This document shows, in pieces, positions 1 through 15,001 of a stretch of 15,001 bases of DNA (the stretch's first letter is position 1; each line of letters starts with the position of its first letter). The translations under genes and the position numbers were made by a program. Source of the stretch: a virus. Its lineage: Duplodnaviria; Heunggongvirae; Uroviricota; Caudoviricetes. The stretch is from IMG/VR virus record IMGVR_UViG_2698536395_000029. One strand, written 5' to 3'. Below the pieces are notes generated by a model. The model had not been told where the DNA came from, ran no database searches, and saw only the letters and a program-made list of their open reading frames with translations.

Positions 1-165
1 ATGGCAAAGCCGATCATCACGCTCAATGGCCTAAAAATCGTCATTATGTTGGGAATGCTGGTCATTATTCTCTGCGGTATCCGTTTTGCCGCCGAGATCA
101 TCGTGCCGTTTATTCTCGCATTATTTATTGCTGTTATATATAACTTATTTCGCATAACACATTGA
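1..165 (+). pseudogene. tqsA: 5' fragment of an AI-2E family transporter gene (TqsA/YdgG-like), interrupted by the inserted element
   Basis: ATG at 1; the first ~45 codons ([45 protein letters not shown]) read like the N-terminal membrane helix of E. coli TqsA as I recall it. After codon 45 the frame enters AT-rich sequence (IYNLFRITH) and stops at 163-165, 54 aa instead of ~340. Identification is from memory, not a search. Confidence 0.5.
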
Positions 166-186
166 TTTAATTAAATAATTAACACC

Positions 187-211
187 GCAAAAAGTGCCAA
201 AAATCGCAAAA
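187..211. promoter_or_regulatory. Phased A-tracts (probable intrinsically bent DNA) in the left arm
   Basis: gcAAAAAgtgccAAAAAtcgcAAAAtg: A4-5 tracts recurring at roughly 10-bp spacing, as in att arms and IHF-bent regions. Confidence 0.4.
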
Positions 212-233
212 TGACTACACCAGTGACTACACC
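212..233. repeat. Tandem direct repeat TGACTACACC x2 (12-bp period); candidate integrase arm-type site
   Basis: Exact 10-mer at 212-221 and 224-233, about 80-100 bp inside the inferred left junction. Confidence 0.5.
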
Positions 234-609: not shown

Positions 610-863
610 CCCCATTAACCACAGGCGAATTTCCGCCTTCGGTCATTCCTTAATCATCTGCGTAATCATAATGATTATTCAGCAAGCGCAATTTTGCGCT
701 TTGCTTAAAGTTCAGCGAGTTACCGCGCCGACTTCCTCAAATTGAGGTTTCCGAAAATATCAGCGGGTTAGCGATTAAGCTGACCATTAATTAAACTGCG
801 AAAATGTCGTAGTTGTGAGGGGTGTAGCCAACCCATTTTTGGGCCGTCGGGAATATCAACCAG

Positions 864-1145
864 TTACCGCCGCAACCGCTCCGGCTTCTTCCAGTGGTAC
901 GTGATTTTCTCCTTCTCCCGATACAGTTCAACGCGGCGATTGTAGGCCAGCATTTCAAGAACGCGGATCCGTATGTCGCGCATATCCGCATCATTAAGCT
1001 GGATACCATCACGGCGCATCACCTCAGCAACAACACGCGCATAATTTTCGGCTGTCACGCTGTCCGGCTGCGTGGTCTGTTCGTCAGCCTGCTGGCTGAT
1101 TCCAGAGACGCGGCGGATTAATCGCAGTATTTCGGCTTCTGTCAT
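864..1145 (-). CDS. Hypothetical protein (93 aa), last gene of the packaging operon
   Basis: ATG at 1145 preceded by GAGGT; begins 14 nt after the TerL stop on the same strand. No family recognised. Confidence 0.5.
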   Translation of the reverse strand: MTEAEILRLIRRVSGISQQADEQTTQPDSVTAENYARVVAEVMRRDGIQLNDADMRDIRIRVLEMLAYNRRVELYREKEKITYHWKKPERLRR

Positions 1146-1158
1146 GCTGCTGACCTCA

Positions 1159-2820
1159 TTACACCCCGCTAAATTCTTCCAGTTTCTGGCGGTGGCTGTC
1201 GCTTATATCAAAAGCAAAATCCTCATGCTCTGCCTGGAATGTACCAAACGCCATCAGCGCCGCTACGCTCGGGTCTATCTTGTTCGGTGATTTTTTCTTG
1301 TTCGGCTTGATATTGGCGTTCGCGTCACTCTGCATCACGACGTTACTCATCGACCAGGACAACACCGGATCGCCACGATGCACAATCACCCTGCGGTTAA
1401 CAAAAACTTCGAACGATTTCGCCGCCGGACTGAATCTGAGGTAGGTTTGCGGGAACGGCTCCACCTCAAAACCAGCCCCCTGTAATTGCGTCCTGAGATG
1501 CGTGGCGTTCCACGTATCAAAGCCCACCAGCCTGATATTAAATTTCTCCGCATCCTGCATGATGTCATCTCTGATCCGGTCGTAATCAATGCAGTCACCT
1601 GGCGTTGTGCGTATCCAGCCCGCTTTAGCCCACTGGCGATAGACAGCGCGGTTTTTATTGGCGGGGTTCTGTAGCTGGAACTCCGGCAGATAATGACGGG
1701 AAACCAGCATGATATTTTTACCGACCGGAAAGGCATAGCACACGCTGGAAATATCGCTGGTTGATGATAAGTCCAGCCCCGCGTAACACTCCTGCCCGTG
1801 TAAATCTTCCTCCGTGAACGTTCCGGCACACTCAGCCCATGCGCCGTTACCCATCCACGGGGTAGCCCCCTGGCACCAGATATTAAATCGCTTTGTCATC
1901 ATCTCCACCCACTGCGACGGAATACCCCGCGCTTTCTGGATGGTTGAGGCCAGTTTTTCACGATCGACGGAAACATCAATATTAGGGTTCGCCTTTATCC
2001 ACATCGCCGGATCATCAACCTCGTTTTCGTCGTCCAGCTCGTAAATCAGTACAAAAATTGAATCGTTAACCTCTTCGCCGTCCAGGATCTGGCAGCAATA
2101 ATCATAGTGCTGTTTACAGGCTGAAACGACGTTGCTGCCTGATGTGGTAATGGCAAATAACAGCCCTTCGGGACGTGCGCCCATCCCCAGCTCAAGCGCG
2201 GAATAAACGCCGTTATCGGGGTGCAAGTGGTATTCGTCCACGATGGAAAGGCTTGGGTTTGTTCCCTCGATGGTTGCCGCTTTTGCTGCCAGCGGCTTTA
2301 ACAGGCTGTTGCTTTTCGGGTGTATCACCTTATGCGCCTGAATATTCACCCGCCTGCGTAACGGTCGGGATAAAAGGCACATCTGACGCGCATCATCAAA
2401 GACGATCCGCGCCTGGTCACGGCTCACCGCTGCGGTGTAGATATCCTGCTGACCGTTCTCCATAATCAGAAACCAGTTAGCCAGAATCGCGGCGGTCGTG
2501 GATTTCGCATTTTTGCGCGGCACTTCGATAAAGGCGCTCGTGTATTTGCGCCGTCCGGTGGCCTTAACCTTAAAGCCGAGGATGCACGCAAAGGCGAACT
2601 GCTGCCACGGCTCCAGCTCAATGGGTCTGCCACGCATCGGTCCTTTTACGTGCGGGCACACCCTGGAAAAGGCAATAAACCGCTCCACAACCTCACGATC
2701 GAACGTGTAAAGGGGGCTTTTAAGGTCCGAAAAGTACCGTTTAACGGCCTGTTTCAGCCGTTTACAGGCCGGAATTTTGCCCGTTTTTACGTCTTCTGCG
2801 TACTTATTCCAGGCGGTCAA
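1159..2820 (-). CDS. terL: Terminase large subunit (Terminase_1-like ATPase/nuclease)
   Basis: 553 aa; Walker-A-like PRKNAKST near residue 100; size and position after TerS. Start per ORF track is TTG at 2820, overlapping the TerS stop; next in-frame ATG is ~60 codons in, so the exact start is uncertain. Confidence 0.9.
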   Translation of the reverse strand: MTAWNKYAEDVKTGKIPACKRLKQAVKRYFSDLKSPLYTFDREVVERFIAFSRVCPHVKGPMRGRPIELEPWQQFAFACILGFKVKATGRRKYTSAFIEVPRKNAKSTTAAILANWFLIMENGQQDIYTAAVSRDQARIVFDDARQMCLLSRPLRRRVNIQAHKVIHPKSNSLLKPLAAKAATIEGTNPSLSIVDEYHLHPDNGVYSALELGMGARPEGLLFAITTSGSNVVSACKQHYDYCCQILDGEEVNDSIFVLIYELDDENEVDDPAMWIKANPNIDVSVDREKLASTIQKARGIPSQWVEMMTKRFNIWCQGATPWMGNGAWAECAGTFTEEDLHGQECYAGLDLSSTSDISSVCYAFPVGKNIMLVSRHYLPEFQLQNPANKNRAVYRQWAKAGWIRTTPGDCIDYDRIRDDIMQDAEKFNIRLVGFDTWNATHLRTQLQGAGFEVEPFPQTYLRFSPAAKSFEVFVNRRVIVHRGDPVLSWSMSNVVMQSDANANIKPNKKKSPNKIDPSVAALMAFGTFQAEHEDFAFDISDSHRQKLEEFSGV

Positions 2821-3160
2821 GCTCGTCCTCTTCTTCTGTTTCCGGTGGGTTTTTACGGCGGCTTATCGGGTCAAAACCGAGCAAGGAGGCCATTTTTATC
2901 ATCACCCTTTCAGCGTCTGATTTCGCGCTTAATGCGGGGTTTCTGCTCTCGCCGCCCTGACTGTTAACAATGCTGAACCCGCGCGCCGCAAGGTCTGCGA
3001 CGGCTTTCCGGTAAATGGAGTAGTTGACACAATACAGTTCCAGATTGCTCCAGTCGGCGGGGGTCAGGTCTCCCCGTTCCGCAAGCTGCCGCGATTTTTC
3101 CCGCCACTGCTTCACGGCGATGTCATCCAGGTAGGCGGGGGCTTTCGGTGGTCTTGCCAT
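2804..3160 (-). CDS. terS: Terminase small subunit (P27-family-like)
   Basis: 118 aa; N-terminus MARPPKAPAYLDD and the YCVNYSIY motif are typical of P27-type TerS; sits immediately upstream of and overlapping TerL. Confidence 0.8.
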   Translation of the reverse strand: MARPPKAPAYLDDIAVKQWREKSRQLAERGDLTPADWSNLELYCVNYSIYRKAVADLAARGFSIVNSQGGESRNPALSAKSDAERVMIKMASLLGFDPISRRKNPPETEEEDELDRLE

Positions 3161-3448
3161 GCTTATTTTTCGTCAGATTATTTTTCAAAAAATTCCCGTG
3201 CATAAAAATTTGAGGAGGCGTTCGGTGCCCGGCGGGGTCGGGTTTGTCCTGAAAACGCCCCCCACCCCGTCATACAGCCTCATCAGCGATTGCGGAAACA
3301 TTCCATAACCTCGCGGTCACGGTCGGTTAATCGCTTCGCTGTGATGCGTTCTGCGCGTCCTGACGCTTTATCTTTATGCCCTGTTTCCTGTGTCTTCCAT
3401 GCGTCACGCTGCCTTATAAGTCCACGGATAAGGCGGTTTTGTTCCCGC
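3161..3448. other. Candidate cos (packaging) region between HNH and TerS
   Basis: 288-bp non-coding gap in the HNH-gap-TerS-TerL arrangement where HK97-like cos phages carry cos. Contains the G/C-rich tract ggtgcccggcggggtcgggtttgtcc (~3225-3250). Position-based inference only. Confidence 0.35.
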
Positions 3449-3889
3449 TCATTCATCAGCGTCATACATCCAGTTATTGCGGTTAGCGGCCCGTTCTTCC
3501 TCTTCACGAAATCCACCTGCGGCACGCTTGCTTTTTGTTGCCGGATCAAGCCACTTCGTTTTCTGGTTATGACACGCCTGGCACAATGGCTGATGGTTCC
3601 ATTCGGGCCAGAAGAGAACATCATCACCGCCATTAATCGGGATAATGTGATCCACCACCACGGCGGGCGTATATATCCCCTTCTCAAGGCATCGCACGCA
3701 TAACGGGTTTTTACTCAGATACATGGCGCGGTATTTTTCCCACTGTCTGGAGTACCCACGCGCGCGGCGGTGTCCTCGTCTGGCATCCTCTGCACGCCAT
3801 GCCGCCCGCCTGTGCTCCTCACACTTGCCGGACTTAACGCGCCTGTTACAGCCTGGTTCTGTACATCGTCTTAATGGTTGCCACGGCAT
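3449..3889 (-). CDS. HNH endonuclease (terminase-associated)
   Basis: 146 aa; cysteine pairs CTEPGC and CVRC, then DHIIP...N...W..NHQPLCQACHNQKT, an HNH signature. ATG at 3889 overlaps the connector stop. Confidence 0.9.
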   Translation of the reverse strand: MPWQPLRRCTEPGCNRRVKSGKCEEHRRAAWRAEDARRGHRRARGYSRQWEKYRAMYLSKNPLCVRCLEKGIYTPAVVVDHIIPINGGDDVLFWPEWNHQPLCQACHNQKTKWLDPATKSKRAAGGFREEEERAANRNNWMYDADE

Positions 3890-4185
3890 CAGTACACCCC
3901 CACATCACGGTAAGCCGTCCAGAGCGCGCCTATCGTCATGGGTACGCGCGTTTTTGCGTTATCCGCTACCAGCTGGCGATTCTCGTACAGGTGAGCGATA
4001 AACATCATGCAGCCAATCTTTATGGCTGGCGTGAACTCCAGCCCGTCATCAAAGCGCCTGCCTATATGTATCTGGCACGCCTCAAGCGATGCGGCAATGT
4101 ATCCGCTGATTAACTGGTCTTCCTCGTCGCCATCGATGCGGCAATGGAGTTTCACTTCTTCCAGGGTGATAAGTTCTTCTGTCAT
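3889..4185 (-). CDS. Head-tail connector protein (gp6-like)
   Basis: 98 aa; N-terminus MTEELITLEEVKLHCRIDGDEEDQLISGYIAAS matches the gp6-like connector pattern (LEE.K.HLRID.DDED.LI). SD GAGGG upstream; ATGA overlap with the adaptor gene. Confidence 0.75.
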   Translation of the reverse strand: MTEELITLEEVKLHCRIDGDEEDQLISGYIAASLEACQIHIGRRFDDGLEFTPAIKIGCMMFIAHLYENRQLVADNAKTRVPMTIGALWTAYRDVGVY

Positions 4186-4520
4186 TTTTCCGCGCCCTCA
4201 CGACAAAGAATTTCAAGGCGTGTCCTGGCGGCATCCGGCAGCGGCTGCCCGATGATATTCAGTACACGCCCCGCCAGCGGCCCCGTATTGACCTTTATCC
4301 GGCTGGTGGCGTTGATGTCCTTCCGGTACCGTATCCAGATCCTTACGGTACCAATCGCCAGCTCTGCACCCGATGAAATGGCCTCCTTGCTGCTGATCAT
4401 GTTCACGCTTGCCCAGAGTGTGTGACCGTCCTCCCACGTTTCGAGTATTTCGCCGGTTATATCCCTGGTCTGTTTCAGGGTCTGAATCGTTACCCTGTCA
4501 CGCAGTCGCCCTATGTTCAT
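4182..4520 (-). CDS. Head-tail adaptor / head-closure protein
   Basis: Start taken at internal ATG 4520 (MNIGRLRDRVTIQ), which has a GAGGGAG SD and an ATGA overlap with the portal stop; the track's longer ORF starts at 4562. The motif RIWIRYRKDI...LEILCRE fits the head-tail adaptor family. Confidence 0.65.
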   Translation of the reverse strand: MNIGRLRDRVTIQTLKQTRDITGEILETWEDGHTLWASVNMISSKEAISSGAELAIGTVRIWIRYRKDINATSRIKVNTGPLAGRVLNIIGQPLPDAARTRLEILCREGAEK

Positions 4521-5728
4521 TCCGGTTTTTCTCCCTCGCTGATTTTTACTTCCTGTTTCCATGCCTGGCTGAACTCATCACCACCATCACGCGGGGACAG
4601 CCCTTCACGTTCGCGGGCTTCGTTCGGGCACATAACGCCGGATTTGATGCCGCGTTCATAGGTGGCAAAGCGTTCGCCAGGTGTGGCCCGTAACAGGTCC
4701 GCGCTGTCAAACTCCACCTGATACCGGATACCAGGTACAGGCGAGGCCACCAGCAGGGCGTTTTTTATCTGCTGCTCAAAGTTCGCCAGCCACGGGCGCA
4801 TTGTCATGGTGAGAAATGCGCGGCTTGCCTCGCTGAAATTGCTGTAGGTGCTGTTGCTGTATTCCTGCAGAAAAATCGGCGAGACGTTGAACATTCGGGC
4901 GATGTCTTCAATGGTGAAGCGACGGGAGGCCAGCCATTCAGCATCCTGATTACTCATGCCCAGCTGCTGATAGCTCATACCCCCTTCAAGGATGGGCGTT
5001 TTTCCGGCGTTTCTGGCCCCTTTGTAGCGTTCCAGTGCGGCTAATGCCTGTTTGCCCTTCACGCCGTCCAGCCATTCGCCTGACGTGATAACCCCTGCCG
5101 CCATCATGCCATCACGCATCACGCTCGCGCCGTGGCGTTGTTGGGCCAGCCCAAGCCCCAGCGATTCGCGGCAGATGGTTACAGGTGAGCGCCCCATAAA
5201 ACCGTCATCCGTGGAGTAACGAAGGTGGAGAACCTCCCACGGTAAATAGTTGCGGGTGTTTCCGGTGTAGGCGTCAGTGATGCAGTAGCGCCAGTTGTGT
5301 TCGCCTGTCTGCTCCACGTTCACCGACTGCGGCGGGTAAGGATGTAAAGCCACCGGAAAACCATCACGCCCCCACTGAATCACCGCATAAGCATTACCGT
5401 TTAACAGGCAGTGGCGGATCATCATTCGCTTAAACTGGTAGGGGGTTTGCCATGCGTTCGGGCGCTCGTTGAGGATGTGATCGACCGGATGAGAATCAAG
5501 CCACTCGCGGGCCTCCTTCCCCTTCTCATTGCGTACCAGGTACAGGTAACACGGCATGGTAGCCACCGCCTCAGAGATGACCGTCACGGCGTTCATGACG
5601 GCGGGCAGTGATTCCGCTGTCCCCGATGATACGTACTCACCCGCCCCCGTGTTCGATGTGCCAGCCAGCGCCATAAACTCATCAAGCGTCATGCTGCGCT
5701 GCTCTTTTTTTCTTCTGAAAGGCCACAT
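4517..5728 (-). CDS. Portal protein (HK97 family)
   Basis: 403 aa; length, composition and position between protease and adaptor; ATG at 5728 two nt after the protease stop. Confidence 0.85.
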   Translation of the reverse strand: MWPFRRKKEQRSMTLDEFMALAGTSNTGAGEYVSSGTAESLPAVMNAVTVISEAVATMPCYLYLVRNEKGKEAREWLDSHPVDHILNERPNAWQTPYQFKRMMIRHCLLNGNAYAVIQWGRDGFPVALHPYPPQSVNVEQTGEHNWRYCITDAYTGNTRNYLPWEVLHLRYSTDDGFMGRSPVTICRESLGLGLAQQRHGASVMRDGMMAAGVITSGEWLDGVKGKQALAALERYKGARNAGKTPILEGGMSYQQLGMSNQDAEWLASRRFTIEDIARMFNVSPIFLQEYSNSTYSNFSEASRAFLTMTMRPWLANFEQQIKNALLVASPVPGIRYQVEFDSADLLRATPGERFATYERGIKSGVMCPNEAREREGLSPRDGGDEFSQAWKQEVKISEGEKPE

Positions 5729-5729
5729 A

Positions 5730-6302
5730 TCACACCCCCGCTAAATCCGCCCACCAGCGGCGATTATCCGCACGCGGCATTTTTTCGGGGTGCTGCTCGT
5801 ACAGGGAGCGGCGGGCCAGCTCCACGCCGGAATCAGGGTAAGCCGGTACGGATGTGACGGTAATTTCGTACAGTTCCGCAACCAGCACGGTGCGCACGCA
5901 TGGATCTGTTGTGGTATCCCATACATCCTTACGGGAACGAAAGCCAAAGCTCATGCCGGATATATCACCACGTTTAACCAGTTCGATAACGTCCCGCCCT
6001 GTGCTGGTATCCGGTGGGGTCAGTTCAAAGCGTAACCCTGTTTCGTCCTCTTCCAGTTTCAGCGTGCCGGAACGGGTACGCCCCAGCAACATGCTGTGGT
6101 CATGCTCATACAGGCCGCGAACGTCATTACCCGCCGCAAGCCATTCAGTAAACGCTCCCCGCTGGAATTTTTCGTAAAACTCCCCCCATAGCAGCTCTGA
6201 AAGCTTATCCCAGCGAACAACGTAGCCTGTAAGCGTGTTGCTGGCGCTGGTGGTGATTTCCGATGACCGGATTTCCATACTCTTCATAATTTTTTCACCC
6301 AT
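5730..6302 (-). CDS. Prohead maturation protease (HK97 / U35-S78 family)
   Basis: 190 aa; motifs GYVVRWDKLS...GAF...LYEHD typical of HK97 prohead protease; lies directly after the capsid gene. Start may be ATG 6302 or ATG 6287. Confidence 0.8.
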   Translation of the reverse strand: MGEKIMKSMEIRSSEITTSASNTLTGYVVRWDKLSELLWGEFYEKFQRGAFTEWLAAGNDVRGLYEHDHSMLLGRTRSGTLKLEEDETGLRFELTPPDTSTGRDVIELVKRGDISGMSFGFRSRKDVWDTTTDPCVRTVLVAELYEITVTSVPAYPDSGVELARRSLYEQHPEKMPRADNRRWWADLAGV

Positions 6303-6311
6303 AAAACACTA

Positions 6312-6331
6312 AAGGGGCTTTTAAGCCCCTT
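6312..6331 (-). terminator. Stem-loop with T-rich tail between capsid and protease (likely partial terminator/attenuator)
   Basis: AAGGGGC-ttttaa-GCCCCTT; on the minus strand the hairpin is followed by TTTAGTGTTTTAT, 10 nt after the capsid stop. Confidence 0.4.
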
Positions 6332-6341
6332 CTGTATGCTG

Positions 6342-7499
6342 TTAATCGTCGTCCTGTGGCAGTTCCAGAATCTTGATCGCGTTCGAATCCACCACGCCAC
6401 CGCCTAAATATTTCTGCGTGAAAATTTTGATGAAGCCCGGCTCTGTGAGGTTGTCCGGTCTGGTGCGAACACCTGTTTCGTGATCAACAATGTAGTAACC
6501 GCGTTTGAAGTCACCCAGGGCAATAACGTTATCAGGCATAAACTCCAGATATTCGACCGGAAGGCCCAGCAACGTATCAGGATCACCCGCCTGTAAACGG
6601 TCGCGCCAGATATAATCACCGTTCGCGTTCTTCACCTTCTGAAGTTTTGCCGCCGTCGTGGAGTTAACCACCCAGACCGCGTTTTTGCGGTATTTTTTAC
6701 GTAATGCAAATTTCAGGTCGATCAGCGGGTCCGCAGATGTCCACGCCAGAGATTCGGAAGGTTTAATTACCTGCAACGTACCAAAATCACGCTCTTTGTC
6801 GTTCTTCTCTGCACGGGGTACGGATAAAAAACCTTTTGCTTTTTTGTCACCGTCGCCCACAACCAGATCGCTTTCTTCGGTTTCCGTGAAGGTGTCGCCA
6901 ATCTCACCCGTCAGCCATGAAAGGATGTCCACATCGGAAAAATCCACGATTTCCTGTGTGGTGCGCGGGTACGCATAGACCGGATACAGCTTAATGCTCA
7001 CCTCGTTAATCTGCGGGGGGCTGGTCTGTTCGCGTGCCTTACCCTCTTCACCGTGGTTAACGGTCGCACCGCCAGCGGAAACAAGCTGCTTAAACTCGTT
7101 GCTGCTGATTTTCTTCACGGTACAGATGCGGCGCATGGTGGATTCATCCGCCAGCATTCGCATGATTTCGGTGTTCAGTTCAGGGATAACGGTATAACCA
7201 CCATCAGCGGGAACGCCTGTACTTAATGCGCGGGTTTCACCTGTCAGAATGTAGTTGCGTAGTTCTGCGGGGTCAGTGGTCTGACTGCTTTTACCTGGCT
7301 TGCTGCGCTCTTCGTCTGCAATGGCTTCAAGGCGGGAAATGTCTTTATCGAGGGATTCAGCTTTAGCGCGTAATTCGTCAAATTTTGCGCCCTCAGCATC
7401 GTTAAGACTGCGGTTTTCTTTTTCCGCGTTCTCCAGCATGTCGCGCATCTGATTTTTAATGGCGGTTTTCTGCTGGCGTAATTCGATTATTCTCGGCAT
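6342..7499 (-). CDS. Major capsid protein (HK97 fold) with N-terminal coiled-coil delta/scaffold-like region
   Basis: Start set at ATG 7499 (MPRIIELRQQ); the track's upstream start at 7547 is GTG. The charged, helical N-terminal ~100 aa followed by a ~280-aa body is the HK97 pattern. Confidence 0.85.
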   Translation of the reverse strand: MPRIIELRQQKTAIKNQMRDMLENAEKENRSLNDAEGAKFDELRAKAESLDKDISRLEAIADEERSKPGKSSQTTDPAELRNYILTGETRALSTGVPADGGYTVIPELNTEIMRMLADESTMRRICTVKKISSNEFKQLVSAGGATVNHGEEGKAREQTSPPQINEVSIKLYPVYAYPRTTQEIVDFSDVDILSWLTGEIGDTFTETEESDLVVGDGDKKAKGFLSVPRAEKNDKERDFGTLQVIKPSESLAWTSADPLIDLKFALRKKYRKNAVWVVNSTTAAKLQKVKNANGDYIWRDRLQAGDPDTLLGLPVEYLEFMPDNVIALGDFKRGYYIVDHETGVRTRPDNLTEPGFIKIFTQKYLGGGVVDSNAIKILELPQDDD

Positions 7500-7506
7500 A
7501 AAAAAA

Positions 7507-7536
7507 GTCCTGGGGTTAAGTAAGGAACTCCAGGAC
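7507..7536 (-). promoter_or_regulatory. Hairpin whose 3' arm contains the capsid Shine-Dalgarno, followed by T7 and the capsid ATG
   Basis: Minus strand reads GTCCTGG-(16 nt)-CCAGGAC-TTTTTTT-ATG; the AGGA of the putative SD sits inside the stem. Confidence 0.45.
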
Positions 7537-7713
7537 GCGGCAAACACTCAACCGTTTTTCATAAGGAAATCAGTAATCGCACCGATCGTTTTCCCGCCTG
7601 GTAATGAATATTGGCGAGCACATTAACAGGCGGGAAAGTGGCCCCAGCGTCCTGGCACCACGGGCGAGAATACTCATGATTCAGTTCGGGTAAAATATGC
7701 CGATCCTGTCAGT

Positions 7714-7739
7714 GAACAACGTGGAACAACCACGAACAA
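7714..7739 (+). promoter_or_regulatory. Phased hexamer array GAACAA-cgtg-GAACAA-ccac-GAACAA (10-bp period) upstream of the head operon
   Basis: Hexamers at 7714-7719, 7724-7729 and 7734-7739, about 215-240 bp upstream of the capsid ATG. Confidence 0.5.
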
Positions 7740-7750
7740 ATAATTTACAA

Positions 7751-7779
7751 AAAATGACAAAAAGCCGGATTGCTCCGGC
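7751..7779 (-). terminator. Rho-independent terminator after the 74-aa orphan gene
   Basis: Minus strand GCCGGA-gcaa-TCCGGC followed by TTTTTGTCATTTT; 12 nt after the stop at 7791. Confidence 0.6.
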
Positions 7780-7790
7780 TGTATGCGTGC

Positions 7791-8015
7791 TCAGTCCCTG
7801 ATCCCTTTCAGAAATTCTATCAATGCATCTATCTGTTCAGGATTTACCGCCAGCATTTCACCGGATAGAGCACATCTAACAAAACCATGCTGATCCTTTT
7901 CAATCAGTGCGCCCGTCTCCAGGAATGCGCGGTAATCATTGATGCTCATCGTCTCCATGTTGTCAGCATGGTATTTATCACGCTGTTTTAATATCTCATC
8001 AAATTTCATCGGCAT
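7791..8015 (-). CDS. Hypothetical protein (74 aa), orphan gene bracketed by two near-identical terminators
   Basis: ATG at 8015 with AGAGGA SD 8 nt upstream (MPMKFDEILKQ...); the track's longer start at 8093 has no SD. Acidic, no family recognised. Confidence 0.55.
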   Translation of the reverse strand: MPMKFDEILKQRDKYHADNMETMSINDYRAFLETGALIEKDQHGFVRCALSGEMLAVNPEQIDALIEFLKGIRD

Positions 8016-8110
8016 TGTTTTTTCCTCTGTTGTGTCTGTTTGTTTCAGATAGTAACTATGCCAGACCGTGACGAAAACCCGGTAATGCGCCATACCGTTT
8101 CAACTGGTGC

Positions 8111-8133
8111 AAAAAAAGCCGGATTTCTCCGGC
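8111..8133 (-). terminator. Rho-independent terminator after the PerC-like gene
   Basis: Minus strand GCCGGA-gaaa-TCCGGC followed by TTTTTTT; nearly identical to the hairpin at 7764-7779. Confidence 0.65.
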
Positions 8134-8140
8134 TGTGTGA

Positions 8141-8413
8141 TTAGCTGTCCTGGTAATTGCGCCATATTTCATCACCAGCACCATCTATCCCCATTTCGGC
8201 ATAAGTGCGATCGACTGCCTTTTTCAGGTCTCCGTAATTATCCGGTGGCTCCGGTGGCCTCTGTGCCTTCCTGCAACATTCCAGCCGTCGCATCGTAACC
8301 TGATGCCGTTCCTTGTCTGTCTCCACCAGCAGCATGACTTCACCCCATCGCGCCGCCGCCCTCCGGTAAAAGCCTTTCGCCTCGAGTTCTTCCGCTATGC
8401 GGTCATGTACCAT
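8141..8413 (-). CDS. PerC-family-like transcriptional regulator (90 aa)
   Basis: Start taken at ATG 8413 (MVHDRIAEEL) with GAGGGGG SD. The motif AEELEAKGFYRRAAARWGEV...MRRLEC resembles the PerC/Pch signature (A..LE..G.WRRAA..W). From memory. Confidence 0.5.
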   Translation of the reverse strand: MVHDRIAEELEAKGFYRRAAARWGEVMLLVETDKERHQVTMRRLECCRKAQRPPEPPDNYGDLKKAVDRTYAEMGIDGAGDEIWRNYQDS

Positions 8414-8423
8414 CGCCACCCCC

Positions 8424-8834
8424 TCAGAACGGAATACCGTCACCGTAAGGGTCATCGCCTCCCGCTGGTGGCTGATTACCCTGTGTGCCTGTGGTTTTGC
8501 GTCTGTTCCCGCCAGGAAGTGCCGCACGGGCACTGATTACGCTGTCTGCAATAACCTGATAACCCTGCCGCGTTTCCCCATTCTGTCCGGTCCACTGGCT
8601 GACCTGCATCGTGCCGGATACGCTGGCAACGTCGCCTTTTTGATGTTTAGCCAGGAAGTCGGCCTGCTTACCAAATGCGATGACCGATAGCCATAACGTC
8701 GCCTGCCCATCCTGCGCCTGACTACATGGCAGCGATACCGCCATACGCGCCAGCGTCATCGGTGTACCCTTGCTGGTCTGTTTTACCTGCGGGTCGTCCA
8801 CCAGCCGCCCGTAAGCTGCTATCTGTGCTGTCAT
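8424..8834 (-). CDS. ssb: Single-stranded DNA-binding protein
   Basis: 136 aa; the OB-fold core aligns with E. coli SSB landmarks (LWLSVIAFGKQADFLAKHQKGD vs [22 protein letters not shown]); Gly/Pro/Gln-rich linker; acidic tail DDPYGDGIPF like the SSB DDDIPF tip. Confidence 0.8.
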   Translation of the reverse strand: MTAQIAAYGRLVDDPQVKQTSKGTPMTLARMAVSLPCSQAQDGQATLWLSVIAFGKQADFLAKHQKGDVASVSGTMQVSQWTGQNGETRQGYQVIADSVISARAALPGGNRRKTTGTQGNQPPAGGDDPYGDGIPF

Positions 8835-9109
8835 GATTCCACCTCTCCGGTTTTAACGTTGATGGTTGTTACCTGTTCCGCTTCGGCAATCTCCCGCTCT
8901 GTCAGCGTGGCAAAATTTGCCGCCGTCGTGGTCATGAATGCGCTTATCAGTTCGGGATGTGCTTTCGCGTATCCTTCCCCCGCGTGGCGGTCTATCGTTC
9001 TGATTGCCACCTTTAAAGCGTGCTCTGTCATGTCTAACGCGCGATATTTCGGTTCTGTTCTGTCTCTGCGTTTTTTGAGTGATTTATTAAATTTCCCTGA
9101 AGTGTGCAT
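8831..9109 (-). CDS. Hypothetical protein (92 aa), first gene after the origin
   Basis: ATG at 9109; stop overlaps the SSB start (ATGA). No family recognised. Confidence 0.5.
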   Translation of the reverse strand: MHTSGKFNKSLKKRRDRTEPKYRALDMTEHALKVAIRTIDRHAGEGYAKAHPELISAFMTTTAANFATLTEREIAEAEQVTTINVKTGEVES

Positions 9110-9397: not shown

Positions 9398-11152
9398 TTA
9401 TAAAAACGCGTCGCACTCGTCTGTTGTTATTGCGTTAGTCTGCGTTACTCCCTTAACTTTCCGCGTAATATATTCATGTCCGTAAACTTTCGCGGCTGGC
9501 TTCATAGCCTTGCCAAAGTCATTTACGTTTAGCGGTTTGCTCCTGCCTGCGTACGCCATAAACGCCAGATAGACGCGGTAAAGGCTGTTTCTGGTCGTGT
9601 ACTTCACTGAATCGCCACCGCCGCCCATCATCAGGCCGCGTGCTTCCTCCAGAAAATTCAGGAACTGGCAAAACTCAATAACCGGATCCGTCTGTTGCTT
9701 TATTGCCAGAGCTTCATCACCGTCACGCTGTTCCAGTAGTAAAGCCCGTGCCTTCTCAGGGTCGGTAAAGTTCGCCAGCAATCGGCGGATAATGACAGGG
9801 ATTTCAGCCGCGATCTTTTCCGGTAGCTCCCTGTCTTTTTCGGCCTCACTGACGATATTGTCGAAACGGAAAATCACGCGACGACGTGCCACACCTCCGG
9901 CCCGTTCGGTGAATATCATCGGGTTATTGTTGGTCGCCAGCACCACCGCCCTGATTACAGCCGTGAAACGCTTTTCGTATTTCGGGTTAATTTCCACGGG
10001 GTCACCGCCCGTGATTTTCTTGATGCCCGTTCCTTCGCCTGTATATTTCGGCTGGTCAGCCAGGACGATAAGACGACTCCCGACAACCTGCGCACGTCCA
10101 CCAGCATCATCAAGCGATGTCATTTCAGCGCTTACCGTGTTCTGTTTCCCTGCCAGAAGGCTGGCTATGTGCGTGAATGTACTTTTACCGCTCCCGCCGT
10201 CTCCGGTGGCCTCAATAAACATCTGCCAGTCGTACCGGTTCGCCATAATCATGTACAGCGCGGCACATATACGCATCATCTTGCGCGGGTCTTTTCCGGC
10301 TGCGTGCTCAAGCCATTTATGAAAGTTTGGCGCGTTATCGCGGATGTTCTCCCCTGGTGCTGGTGGCGTGTACTCAATGCCGTTGTGCGTGGTGATCCAG
10401 TTCTCCGGCGTGTGCGGGGAAAATTCCCCCGTTTTCAGGTCAAGCGCACCATTGGCGAACGGCAGCAAATCGCCGGACGGCTCGCCCATTGGTTCGGCAA
10501 TAACTTTTAACGCTTCCACGGCGTTATTGATTACGCGCTTGCTGAAAGTGGCCCTGTGCTCTGAATAGATCGCCACCATTTCGCGGCTAAGTTCCATTGT
10601 GCTGACCGGACACCATACCCCGCCGCGCCATACGTGAACGATTTCACTTTCAGGATGTACGCAAACGCCATCAAAGCGATCGGCAAGCAGCTGCGCGCGC
10701 TCACTGTCCGCCATCTGCGAAAGTTGCGCCTTTTGCTTTACCGGAAGCTCAATGACCAGACCATCAGAAAGATTCTGGCGCTCACGAGCCAGATATTCGC
10801 GCCAGTTCTCCACCTTCTGACCGTGCATACCATCAGGGTAAAAATTTGCATCCTGTACGCCTGCCGCCGCCAGCTTCTGACCAATCGCCTTTATCATTAC
10901 TGGCGCAAGATATCCGGCCCTGAATATGCGCACGGATTTTCTGCCTTCCGGCACAATTTGCAGCTTATCCAGTTCGGATAACTGCTGCTCCCCAAGCCAC
11001 ACAGGAGGCTCATTATCTCCGGCCATACGCGCGTCATGTTCCTGCCATTGTTTTGCGTGTGACCAGGCATCACTACCCGCAAAAATAATGACTTCTGTTT
11101 CTTTGTGTTTTATGCCGCGTGACTGCTGTTTTACGTTCGGTGCCAGTTTCAT
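9398..11152 (-). CDS. Primase/helicase replication protein (P4-alpha-like; D5-type NTPase C-terminal domain)
   Basis: 584 aa; Walker A GDGGSGKST at ~residue 318 with the surrounding D5/P4-family helicase context; N-terminal primase-like region; iteron origin immediately downstream. Confidence 0.85.
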   Translation of the reverse strand: MKLAPNVKQQSRGIKHKETEVIIFAGSDAWSHAKQWQEHDARMAGDNEPPVWLGEQQLSELDKLQIVPEGRKSVRIFRAGYLAPVMIKAIGQKLAAAGVQDANFYPDGMHGQKVENWREYLARERQNLSDGLVIELPVKQKAQLSQMADSERAQLLADRFDGVCVHPESEIVHVWRGGVWCPVSTMELSREMVAIYSEHRATFSKRVINNAVEALKVIAEPMGEPSGDLLPFANGALDLKTGEFSPHTPENWITTHNGIEYTPPAPGENIRDNAPNFHKWLEHAAGKDPRKMMRICAALYMIMANRYDWQMFIEATGDGGSGKSTFTHIASLLAGKQNTVSAEMTSLDDAGGRAQVVGSRLIVLADQPKYTGEGTGIKKITGGDPVEINPKYEKRFTAVIRAVVLATNNNPMIFTERAGGVARRRVIFRFDNIVSEAEKDRELPEKIAAEIPVIIRRLLANFTDPEKARALLLEQRDGDEALAIKQQTDPVIEFCQFLNFLEEARGLMMGGGGDSVKYTTRNSLYRVYLAFMAYAGRSKPLNVNDFGKAMKPAAKVYGHEYITRKVKGVTQTNAITTDECDAFL

Positions 11153-11913: not shown

Positions 11914-12145
11914 AACCACCCCCATTTTCACAATCAGCAATCAGGATGGCTTTAGCCTCATTCAGCGCCATATCAGCACTAAGTTGCATAACCGCCAGCG
12001 AATGAGGAACGAAAGCCCCGGCATATTCTGTTTCACTGGTGTCGTGCTTATGCGCCCTGTCAGCAATAACAGAAATATCAATCAGCGCATGCATTAGCGT
12101 TATGATGGCTTCGGCGGCTGCGTCCGGACGGGTGTTATTGCACAT
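11906..12145 (-). CDS. Hypothetical protein (79 aa)
   Basis: ATG at 12145 preceded by CAGGAGG; overlaps the stop of the 68-aa gene. Confidence 0.5.
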   Translation of the reverse strand: MCNNTRPDAAAEAIITLMHALIDISVIADRAHKHDTSETEYAGAFVPHSLAVMQLSADMALNEAKAILIADCENGGGYA

Positions 12146-12341
12146 GGCACACCTCCTGACGAATACGGGCAGCGAATACCATCACGCAGCCAGCCGGAGA
12201 TTGCTGGCGTGCTTCCTGTTCGCTGGTGGCCTCAATGGTAATCACGCGCGGTTGTGCCGTGCTCAGGGCGATAAAACGCCAGATGTATTTATTCAGGTCG
12301 TGCGAGTCCCGCCCTTGCGGGTGTGTGGTATGATTTCTCAT
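12135..12341 (-). CDS. Hypothetical protein (68 aa); first gene of the replication operon, possibly Icd-like
   Basis: ATG at 12341 with GAGGT SD. It is the only plausible part of the 342-aa track ORF; the upstream 274 codons are Cys/Arg/Ser-rich antisense of real plus-strand genes. The motif YIWRFIALS...EARQQ...VFAAR vaguely recalls Icd-like proteins (low confidence). Confidence 0.5.
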   Translation of the reverse strand: MRNHTTHPQGRDSHDLNKYIWRFIALSTAQPRVITIEATSEQEARQQSPAGCVMVFAARIRQEVCHVQ

Positions 12342-12379
12342 AGCTACCTCGATACTTTCGCTATCGTTGGTGGTTAGAA

Positions 12380-12410
12380 GCCCTGCGAGTGGTAACGACA
12401 CTTGCGGGGC
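12380..12410. promoter_or_regulatory. Imperfect 12-bp inverted repeat in the divergent control region
   Basis: GCCCTGCGAGTG-gtaacga-CACTTGCGGGGC (10/12 complementary at DNA level); lies in the 5' leader of the minus-strand operon. Confidence 0.45.
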
Positions 12411-12438
12411 TTTGCATTTATGCACCTTGATAATCTCA

Positions 12439-12474
12439 AGGTGTGGCCCACTATATGCTTTAGGTGTGGCCCAC
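12439..12474. promoter_or_regulatory. Two exact 13-bp direct repeats AGGTGTGGCCCAC (candidate operator) overlapping a sigma70-like promoter
   Basis: Copies at 12439-12451 and 12462-12474, 23 bp apart; TTGATA at 12427-12432 and TATACT at 12506-12511 are plausible promoter hexamers upstream of the gene starting at 12541. Confidence 0.5.
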
Positions 12475-12540
12475 GTCAAGGGTTTTATTTGTGCTTTTTC
12501 TGTGTATACTGTCCCCCACCAATCCAACAGAGGAATAGAA

Positions 12541-12720
12541 ATGGCAACGGGTACAACAAACGCAAAATCACAAGCTCTAAAGGCTCGTGTACCACACGAA
12601 ATAGTAAACGCCATGGAATCAGTGAAAGAATCAGGCGAAAGCACATCACAATTCATCATTGCGTCAATGCAAGGCGAGATCAAACGCCGCCAGCGCCGCA
12701 AGGCCAAAGAATCAGAATAA
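12541..12720 (+). CDS. Small DNA-binding protein, probable ribbon-helix-helix fold (59 aa)
   Basis: ATG at 12541 with AGAGGAA SD. The pattern LKARVPHEIVNAMESVKESGESTSQFIIASMQGEI (strand, helix, G-S/T turn, helix) and a basic tail fit CopG/Arc-type RHH proteins. Confidence 0.55.
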   Translation: MATGTTNAKSQALKARVPHEIVNAMESVKESGESTSQFIIASMQGEIKRRQRRKAKESE

Positions 12721-12762
12721 TCACTATCAGCGCCGTGGTGTGAGGTATTACGGCGCATTGCT

Positions 12763-12951
12763 ATGCAGGACAACACAATGACCGATAAAGAATTGACCAA
12801 AACATTATCACCGGCACGGAAAAGACGGCGCAGAAAGATAGAACATGAATCAGAAAGATTCGCGCCATGTGCTTTTGCCCTTGAGCAATTCCTTAAAGAG
12901 TACAGGGAAAAGCGCTCATTGCAGGTATGGCAACGAACTGAACCAGACTGA
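12763..12951 (+). CDS. Hypothetical basic protein (62 aa; start may be 12778)
   Basis: ORF 43 nt downstream of the RHH gene on the same strand, with a poly-basic stretch ARKRRRRK; the SD is weak, so coding status is uncertain. Confidence 0.4.
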   Translation: MQDNTMTDKELTKTLSPARKRRRRKIEHESERFAPCAFALEQFLKEYREKRSLQVWQRTEPD

Positions 12952-13036
12952 TTGCATTGCCCACCAGCCTGATAGCGGCTATCATCCCCGTGCTTATGTT
13001 TGGGATCACACACACAAACGGCGCAGCGGGTTATCT

Positions 13037-13064
13037 GTTCAGAAAGGCGGCTCCATTTCGGGGC
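13037..13064 (+). terminator. Rho-independent terminator ending the plus-strand RHH operon
   Basis: GCGGCTCC-atttc-GGGGCCGC (8-bp stem with one G-U pair) followed by T7. Confidence 0.75.
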
Positions 13065-13220
13065 CGCTTTTTTTATGCCTGAAAAACCCCAATTTTGTGG
13101 TTTTCCAGTCTCACCAGGGCGAACGAATCCCCGCCCACGTTCTGGCGTATATTCAATCTTCATGGTTATAGCTCTGTGTTCAGATGATTGATGTGTGGCG
13201 GCTGTGTGCCGCCAGCGTGA

Positions 13221-13409
13221 TTAATGAACTGCCTTGCAGCTATCCTTCCAGGCCAGAACCTCGGATAAAGACCAGCCAACGGAACGACCGCCAAGTTTAC
13301 GACGTGATGGGAATTGTCCGGCCTTTTCCAGGCGGTAGCGGCATGAGCGGCTAAGGCCTGTTAGCTTTTCGCATTCTTTTTCACGTATAAACCGATCAGT
13401 GCTTAACAC
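13221..13409 (-). CDS. alpA: AlpA-family transcriptional regulator / excisionase-like HTH protein
   Basis: 62 aa; LTGLSRSCRYRLEKAGQFPSRRKLGGRSVGWSLSEVLAW matches the AlpA signature (TGLSRST.YR....G.FP.P.KLG.R.V.W...EV..W). Start is GTG at 13409 with AAGGGGG SD. Confidence 0.85.
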   Translation of the reverse strand: MLSTDRFIREKECEKLTGLSRSCRYRLEKAGQFPSRRKLGGRSVGWSLSEVLAWKDSCKAVH

Positions 13410-13692: not shown

Positions 13693-13737
13693 TGTTCGTA
13701 GTTGTTCCGCATTGTTGCTCATTGTTGCATGTTGTAT
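13693..13737 (-). promoter_or_regulatory. Array of four to five TTGTT[C/G] hexamers at exact 10-bp phasing (minus strand GAACAA/CAACAA)
   Basis: Hexamers at 13693, 13703, 13713, 13723 and a degenerate one at 13732; about 285-330 bp upstream of alpA and 50-90 bp downstream of the int stop. Confidence 0.55.
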
Positions 13738-13783: not shown

Positions 13784-15001
13784 TTATTTTCTTCTGGCTA
13801 CTGGTAGCGTGGTTACGTTTTCATGTGTTCCCGCCAGTATCCCTAACCGCTCCGTCCACATATCCAGCGCATTGCGTTTAGCATCCAGATAACGGGAATG
13901 ATTATAAACTCGCTGCATTCCTGGCATCTGATGACCTGTAAGCTGCTCCACGACATGCGGATCAACGCCTAAATCGTTCAGCATGGTTGTAAAGGTGCGC
14001 CGGATGTCATGCAGTGACCAGTGAGGATGATTAAGCCTCCTGTGCGCTAATCTTCCATACTGCGATACGCTGGCCTCCTGTTTCGCTTCCCCCAGCAATA
14101 AGCCCGTGTGCCTGTTCTGCTCCACCAGCTGCGTGACGAACGGCAGGATCGCTTCCGGTATGGGCCGGAATATTGCGACCTTCGTTTTGCTGTGCTCCTT
14201 CGGAACGGTCCATAGCATTTCCGTAAAATCCCACTCCCCGATCTCCGATAGCCTCAGTTCTACCGTCCTGGCTCCGAAGACAATCAGGAGGCGGATTAAC
14301 GCGACGTAGTAAGGGGAAAATATTTTTTTGTCCAGTGCCTGCAATAATTCGCCAAGTTCTTTGTTACTTAAGACACGTTCGCTTATATCCGGTTTTTTCC
14401 CAACGTCCGCCACGTTCAGATCGTCCAGAACGTTGCTGATTGCATAGCGCCGCCTACGGCAGAACTTAAGCGCCTGTTTGCACGCCTGTAGCACGAATCC
14501 GGCAGTAACAGGCGTTCGCTTTGCCACCTGGTCAAAACAGGCCAGCCAGTGCCGTAGCTCGCATTTATCCAGCGGCATAGCACCAATCTGCTGTATTACG
14601 TGATTATTAAGTCGCCTTTTCAGGGCGATATAATCCACGCGGTTTTCCTTTACGTAATACTCAAGCCAGTAGGTGAGCGCATCGCCAACCGTTACGGGCT
14701 TTAACGCTTCCTGTACGGTGTAATTCATCTCATGACGTGGATTTTTCCCCTCAGCCAGCCATGTGCGACACTGTGCGGCTTTTTCCCTGGCTGCTTTCAG
14801 GCTCAGATCAGGATAACTTCCCAGCTTAATGCGTTCGGGTCGTGTCTCCCTTCCCGTTCCGGCCCTGTATGTGAAATACCAGGTCAATTTCCCTGATGTT
14901 AAATATTTCACGCTCAGGTTTCCGCCATCACTATAAAACGTGTTTTTCTCCGCTGGCTTACCATGAAGTTTCCTTAGCAAGGTATCGCTCAGTTTGTTCA
15001 T
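13784..15001 (-). CDS. int: Tyrosine integrase (P4/CP4-57-type, N-terminal arm-binding domain plus catalytic domain)
   Basis: 405 aa; ATG at 15001, the window edge. The N-terminus (LSDTLLRKLHGKPAEK...YSDGGNLSVKY...WYFTYR) follows the P4-type arm-binding pattern; the C-terminus has HDIRRT and RVYNHSRY consistent with the H-x-x-R and catalytic Tyr. Confidence 0.9.
   Translation of the reverse strand: MNKLSDTLLRKLHGKPAEKNTFYSDGGNLSVKYLTSGKLTWYFTYRAGTGRETRPERIKLGSYPDLSLKAAREKAAQCRTWLAEGKNPRHEMNYTVQEALKPVTVGDALTYWLEYYVKENRVDYIALKRRLNNHVIQQIGAMPLDKCELRHWLACFDQVAKRTPVTAGFVLQACKQALKFCRRRRYAISNVLDDLNVADVGKKPDISERVLSNKELGELLQALDKKIFSPYYVALIRLLIVFGARTVELRLSEIGEWDFTEMLWTVPKEHSKTKVAIFRPIPEAILPFVTQLVEQNRHTGLLLGEAKQEASVSQYGRLAHRRLNHPHWSLHDIRRTFTTMLNDLGVDPHVVEQLTGHQMPGMQRVYNHSRYLDAKRNALDMWTERLGILAGTHENVTTLPVARRK

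Follow-up and report, generated by a model that had tools for sequence, protein, structure and literature searches.

The window analysed here, by which we mean the whole 15,001-nt stretch of DNA in IMG/VR virus record IMGVR_UViG_2698536395_000029, opens with the start of a host transporter gene, tqsA, and continues into an integrase-bearing island. This locus raises the question of whether the island entered tqsA by site-specific integration and, if it did, whether the gene is inactivated or is rebuilt at the other junction. Our answer, to which we assign a probability of about 95%, is that positions 1-165 are the attL of a ~15.06-kb capsid-forming PICI (cf-PICI) integrated at the published tqsA site, splitting and inactivating tqsA. 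The insertion itself is confirmed as real, ordinary and already described. A full-text literature search for a PICI in tqsA, or for an integrase in ydgG, returned no match; the site stands in a supplementary table, where EcCI042 and EcCIK1516 are listed in tqsA with the core ATAACAGCA (Fillol-Salom et al. 2018, ISME J, PMC6092414 Table S1). The core that we found, TGCTGTTAT, is the reverse complement of that sequence.

The two junctions in tqsA

Window positions 1-137 (plus strand) are 100% identical to nt 1-137 of K-12 tqsA (E 5e-64), with the first mismatch at nt 138, and several thousand complete E. coli genomes contain these 137 nt without a mismatch. This host side of attL holds codons 1-45 of tqsA plus 2 nt. 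The GC content is 0.44 in positions 1-137, 0.35 in positions 138-300 and 0.51 in the whole island. The first-pass annotation, which was made from the letters of the window alone, had described a native tqsA frame of about 45 codons that runs into AT-rich island sequence and stops at 54 aa, and the K-12 alignment agrees with this description. The chimeric ORF (positions 1-165, plus strand, 54 codons and a stop) keeps the ATG start and native codons 1-45, and codon 46 changes from ATT to ATA and still encodes Ile; the product carries 46 TqsA residues followed by the eight island residues YNLFRITH, with the stop codon at 163-165. A Pfam search of the 54-aa product gave no match, and we presume that it is a truncated, nonfunctional remnant.

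TqsA, the product of ydgG, is an exporter of AI-2 (PMC7918475). Its sole Pfam domain, AI-2E_transport, covers residues 14-328, and the split at residue 46 (codons 43-46 of 344) falls inside it, which bears out the initial proposal of a mobile element within the 5' end of the gene. Alignment with an uninterrupted tqsA allele, the check that had been suggested, puts the junction after nt 137. A recombination core had been guessed at around positions 120-140, and a duplicated 9-bp core, TGCTGTTAT, was found at positions 129-137, corresponding to tqsA nt 129-137. The annotation had also allowed that the tqsA resemblance could be coincidental should no empty-site allele match the start of the window; alleles that match positions 1-137 are abundant.

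The right junction, attR, lies outside the window and was taken from genomes 98-100% identical to it. Strain 20.1 (NZ_AP027170.1) matches the window at 100.0% over its full length by blast, and the one located difference is a 1-nt indel at position 2618 in terL. In this strain the integrase starts 12 nt past the window end, and TGCTGTTAT occurs again at +188 to +196. The attR core is followed by tqsA nt 138-1035, the remaining 301 codons, and then by pntB. When used as a probe, attR aligned with intact tqsA alleles only from the T at the core onward. The island is 15,059 bp long in strain 20.1, and the window version is one base longer. Both the remainder of tqsA and a repeat of the core had been expected beyond int, and near-identical genomes contain both; the core is present as a direct repeat at the two junctions in six carrier genomes.

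A capsid-forming PICI and its att sites

Every gene of the island to which a function could be assigned is encoded on the minus strand. A noncoding left end of 726 bp (138-863), which forms the attP arm distal to int, is followed by the last gene of the island, encoding a 93-aa protein (phrog_1561; 864-1145). Beyond it lie the genes for TerL (1159-2820; Pfam TerL_ATPase and TerL_nuclease), a P27-family TerS (2804-3160; Terminase_4), an HNH endonuclease of the packaging module (3449-3889; Pfam HNH), a head-tail adaptor (3889-4185; phrog_40), a head closure protein (4182-4520; phrog_25), the portal (4517-5728; Phage_portal, 9e-91), an HK97-type prohead serine protease (5730-6302; Peptidase_S78) and a major capsid protein of the HK97 fold family (6342-7499, PGAP coordinates; Phage_capsid, 3e-61). 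A PerC-family regulator (8141-8413) and SSB (8424-8834), both assigned by annotation or PHROGs, precede the primase/replicase (9398-11152; D5_N, DUF5906 and Pox_D5), and the right part of the window encodes an AlpA-family regulator/excisionase (13221-13409; Phage_AlpA, 5e-18) and the tyrosine integrase (13784-15001; Arm-DNA-bind_3 and Phage_integrase), whose first four codons, with a GTG start, lie in the 12 nt beyond the window end according to PGAP. An Icd-like ORF and other small ORFs occupy the region between alpA and the primase gene. There, one uninterrupted ORF of 342 aa (positions 12135-13163, minus strand) matches the transcriptional repressor phrog_6196 with its C-terminal ~80 residues, and the Icd-like stretch called by PGAP falls at this end; in related genomes PGAP calls three features here, namely a short Icd-like gene, a YlcI/YnfO gene on the opposite strand and a pseudogene, and the gene model is uncertain. 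As a separate observation, strain 20.1 is without one base at position 2618 and has a terL with a frameshift annotation; the window encodes an intact TerL of 553 aa.

The island contains int, alpA and a primase/replicase gene in one direction of transcription, as is typical of the PICI core, together with genes for a major capsid protein, prohead protease, portal, connectors, HNH endonuclease, TerS and TerL. No tail or lysis gene was found in it by annotation or by family match (Pfam, PHROGs). An integration, excision and replication set combined with its own head and packaging genes in ~15 kb, free of tail and lysis genes, is the published gene set of cf-PICIs (10.1101/2022.09.08.507074). Judged by its genes and sequence, the element is a cf-PICI of ~15.06 kb, a class whose members are induced by a helper phage and form small capsids to which helper tails are added. 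EcCI042 and EcCIK1516 share the target gene, the 9-bp core and the int-alpA type of integration module with the window element; however, they are classical PICIs of ~11 kb that use helper capsids, whereas the window element has 15 kb and its own capsid and packaging genes. cf-PICIs are known to use six attB sites, four of them common to classical PICIs (10.1101/2022.09.08.507074).

The closest known architecture is that of EcCIEDL933, the prototype, whose locus is ycfD-phoQ (PMC6092414 Table S1). The same table counts the 15.5-kb islands of EDL933 and Sakai (HNH; terL) among the close relatives of the EcCICFT073 integrase, and EcCICFT073 occupies ycfD-phoQ. Window positions 852-9085 align with the ycfD-phoQ island of O157:H7 at 97.3% identity (8,236 bp), the capsid and packaging block is near-identical to that of EcCIEDL933 and the TerS protein accession is identical; the int-alpA region is 92.5% identical to that of the O157 island. 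The two differ in the primase module (DUF927 in EcCIEDL933 versus D5_N/DUF5906 here), in parts of the regulatory region and in the target, given that EcCIEDL933 occupies an intergenic site with the core GGACATATTT and disrupts no gene, whereas the window element lies inside tqsA. We derived the cores for tqsA and ycfD-phoQ independently, and the published ATAACAGCA and GGACATATTT are their reverse complements.

In the explanation that we favor, the tyrosine integrase would have inserted the island by site-specific recombination at TGCTGTTAT, tqsA nt 129-137. Tyrosine integrases require identity in the overlap region (PMC10111431), and strand exchange should therefore occur within the 9 bp of identity. 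Each end of the island carries a co-oriented 11-mer doublet, (A/G)TGACTACACC-A-GTGACTACACC, that is found nowhere else in the island; the copy in the left end, ATGACTACACC-A-GTGACTACACC, lies at positions 211-233 (plus strand), and the second belongs to the arm next to int, past the window end. Measured from the centre of the core, their near edges stand at 78 and 133 bp, compared with ~81 and 132 bp for the doubled motif in the attPs of related PICIs (PMC10111431). By analogy with those sites, the doublets are candidate arm-type Int sites. The attPs of the helper-embedded PICI integrases described by Tommasini et al. (2023, PMC10111431) likewise have two co-oriented doublets with a 12-bp period, placed asymmetrically on either side of the core; the motif is TGTATTGC in those PICIs and ACTACACC here, and their motif was reported to be absent from other PICIs (PMC10111431). 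We infer that recombination proceeds by this mechanism, that the doublets serve as arm sites and that the island is competent for excision.

The reconstructed attPs of the tqsA and ycfD-phoQ types are homologous in both arms; they differ in a cassette of 31 bp around the core, and in the arm doublets the ycfD-phoQ type has TTAACTACACC where the tqsA type has GTGACTACACC. The two integrases (ycfD-phoQ type: locus L004, 31031-32260) are 91% identical with 37 differences, 22 of which fall within the first 100 residues; the arm-binding domain spans residues 4-91. The differences in this domain match the doublet change from GTGACTACACC to TTAACTACACC and the swap of the 31-bp cassette. This pair of integrases represents a compact natural change of specificity, possibly useful to recombinase engineers. 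Among one-genome-per-species contigs, the sole match to the integrase was a ycfD-phoQ-type locus in Shigella flexneri.

The noncoding left end has further features. Positions 160-505 form a block that is kept in PICIs at other att sites (alignment of the O157 and W24 islands), and positions 330-760 contain eight short perfect palindromes with AT-rich centres and stems of 5-7 bp (for example, GATACCCcaaatttGGGTATC at 497), compared with 0.9 +/- 0.9 expected from 300 dinucleotide shuffles. Palindromes with other stem sequences also occur in the O157 island, in the stretch that corresponds to this array but has diverged from it; compared at the level of the whole stretch, this suggests that palindromy rather than sequence is conserved in the left end. 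Positions 138-870 gave no match by blastn against 50,697 phage records and no tandem array by TRF, and an Rfam search of the whole window returned only a sub-threshold miRNA chance match. We considered that the block could be a lambda-type cos site and rejected this, given that lambda-type cosN is absent from the window and that the cosN copies of the W24 island fall outside the shared block. Separately, the motif AACGTGGAACAA, with variants of one or two mismatches and in some cases a 10-bp spacing, was seen at positions 255-266, 7718-7729 and ~13702-13733 and in the attR locus (L003, 19081-19102), that is, in each att arm, ahead of the capsid operon and between int and alpA; it also occurs in the O157 and W24 islands and may be an operator bound by AlpA or by a different regulator of the island.

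Carriers, independent insertions and excision

Frequencies were determined in 5,426 complete E. coli genomes. tqsA was found in 5,423 of these, and more than 5,000 have an empty tqsA site. The gene lies in two separate places in 254 of the 5,426 genomes; 247 have the attR junction described here, and 208 have attL with the same left end. Roughly 250 genomes thus have an island at this site. In the six carriers, the junctions are identical to the nucleotide, the islands measure 11,749-15,717 bp and the host tqsA alleles are 0, 10, 12 or 14 nt away from K-12. E. coli W24 carries an 11.7-kb classical PICI at the same nucleotide (L006, 19138-30886). This PICI has lambda-like genes for the capsid, decoration and TerS proteins, and lambda-type cosN occurs in it twice (L006, 20173 and 21038). 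Its presence at the same core indicates that one int-attP module serves two satellite classes, and the two island classes together with the several host alleles make several independent integrations at the tqsA core likely. NZ_CP042934.2 (L007), which is labelled E. coli 042, has a 4.69-Mb genome with an intact tqsA encoding a protein identical to that of K-12, and it was left out of the carrier set for this reason. EcCI042 was described in tqsA of strain 042 from FN554766.1 (Fillol-Salom 2018, PMC6092414), and NZ_CP042934.2 comes either from a derivative that has lost the island or from another, or wrongly labelled, strain.

Insertions in tqsA had been noticed in broader surveys. Bobay et al. 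(2013) counted tqsA among the genes disrupted by prophage integration (PMC3603311), and Mageeney et al. (2020, NAR) listed the islands Eco282.16.tqsA, Eco557.15.tqsA and Eco33.11.tqsA and scored the site as "disrupted without restoration" (PMC7192596). These TIGER islands of 11-16 kb agree with the window element in size and in disrupting a domain without restoring it; neither survey recognised the tqsA islands as PICIs or cf-PICIs. The first-pass remark that disruptive integration within a gene is the rarer mode is also in line with PMC7192596.

Because both junctions keep the 9-bp core, precise excision by Int and AlpA would be expected to regenerate an intact tqsA, probably upon induction of the satellite by a helper phage. 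The reconstructed attP is GATAAAATGCTGTTATATATAAC. When the left side of attL was joined to the right side of attR in silico, five of the six carriers yielded an intact TqsA of 344 aa with 0-1 amino acid differences from K-12. In the sixth, EcPF40 (L008, 17502-18407), the 3' fragment of tqsA is interrupted by the nonsense mutation S298*, an internal stop that PGAP also flagged. In at least one lineage, then, the divided gene is undergoing decay, and excision would not repair it there. No match to the excised junction, GATAAAATGCTGTTATATATAACTTATT, was found in IMG/VR viral contigs or JGI metagenome contigs.

We considered that the satellite might act as a regulated switch, so that AI-2 export could be turned off and on again in living cells with a physiological payoff. 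This would add a function to the explanation given above and does not replace it. Several points would fit: one type of integrase places a cf-PICI and a classical PICI at the same nucleotide in several host backgrounds, a conserved AI-2E_transport domain is split without restoration, joining the halves in silico repairs the gene in most carriers and tqsA was named as a candidate by Mageeney et al. (PMC7192596). Elements that split genes have precedents in Listeria phi10403S at comK, skin at sigK and SPbeta at spsM in B. subtilis, an S. aureus phage at hlb and E. coli phages at mlrA (PMC7192596). As here, these are insertions inside a coding sequence that do not restore the gene and whose precise excision would; however, regulated excision and a host phenotype have been shown for them, whereas the tqsA case is a genotype, produced by a helper-dependent satellite. 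The excision of PICIs needs alpA expression activated by a helper phage (10.1101/2022.09.08.507074) and hence occurs under lytic conditions, where the cell would probably gain little from a restored gene. The decay in EcPF40 and the lack of matches to the excised form in IMG/VR and JGI metagenome contigs also speak against a switch, and islands with 91%-identical integrases use the intergenic ycfD-phoQ site, and thus gene disruption is not a family trait. We regard a physiological switch as unlikely on this evidence. The broader proposal that the choice of tqsA is adaptive, with PICI and cf-PICI satellites reversibly altering AI-2 export and biofilm formation and excision restoring tqsA, seems to us improbable to the same degree; the precise site, the several independent islands and the mostly undecayed halves would favor it, and against it stand the single decayed allele and the fact that PICIs excise in a lytic setting.

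The fate of tqsA in carriers

While the island is resident, carriers contain two tqsA fragments and no second copy (at most two places per genome). PGAP calls both halves pseudogenes, and it annotates the 3' fragment as lacking its N-terminus in each of the six carriers for which the annotation was consulted. No promoter-like site facing the 3' fragment was found in positions 18800-19500 of the attR locus (L003), and a promoter and terminator scan of both junctions gave nothing that exceeds the shuffle expectation. One could imagine that the 3' fragment still yields a functional, N-terminally truncated TqsA from Met54, so that the insertion would be phenotypically silent. Such a product would retain 284 of the 327 AI-2E_transport profile positions, and the fragment is intact in five of the six carriers. 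It would nevertheless be without profile positions 1-42, which correspond to the first transmembrane segments; no obvious Shine-Dalgarno sequence precedes Met54, no promoter-like site lies upstream and one lineage has a nonsense mutation in the fragment. We consider a functional product from Met54 very unlikely.

The first-pass annotation had left two outcomes side by side, inactivation of the transporter or a gene rebuilt with an island-supplied 5' end, and the attR sequence upholds the former and speaks against the latter. For tqsA to be rebuilt, the island would have to provide a start codon and the first transmembrane helix, in the way that phages integrating in icd or in tRNA genes complete their targets. 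The island side of attR does contain an ORF in frame with the 3' portion of tqsA (L003, 19000-19182), which stays open for 60 codons; however, it ends in TGA TAA directly before AAT-GCT-GTT-ATT at the core. The encoded peptide (60 residues) is hydrophilic and does not resemble TqsA residues 1-43, attP and attB share only the 9 bp, and the island brings no sequence that would complete tqsA. The absence of a promoter-like site towards tqsA, the PGAP fragments that lack an N-terminus in 6/6 carriers and the survey score of disruption without restoration (PMC7192596) likewise argue against it, and we give this reading even less credence than a product from Met54. That the 137-nt match is a coincidence, or a relic unrelated to integration, is impossible in view of its 100% identity (E 5e-64), the syntenic flanks (mdtJI-ydgV upstream and pntBA past attR) and the empty sites in more than 5,000 genomes.

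Integration at the tqsA core with loss of the gene remains our explanation. Given that the two stop codons before the attR core leave no island-supplied 5' end, the data support that tqsA is inactivated rather than rebuilt while the island is resident, a loss of function that we read from the truncation. By splitting the AI-2 exporter gene inside AI-2E_transport without a replacement 5' end, the insertion would turn tqsA off. A polar effect on the neighbors is not expected, given that tqsA is flanked by the divergent mdtJI/ydgV and the convergent pntBA.

Collectively, our findings indicate that phage satellites have made natural tqsA knockouts of ~4.6% of the complete E. coli genomes, and these insertions matter wherever tqsA, AI-2 or biofilms are compared across strains. 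If the choice of tqsA were adaptive after all, the induction of the satellite or of its helper phage would be linked to AI-2 signalling.
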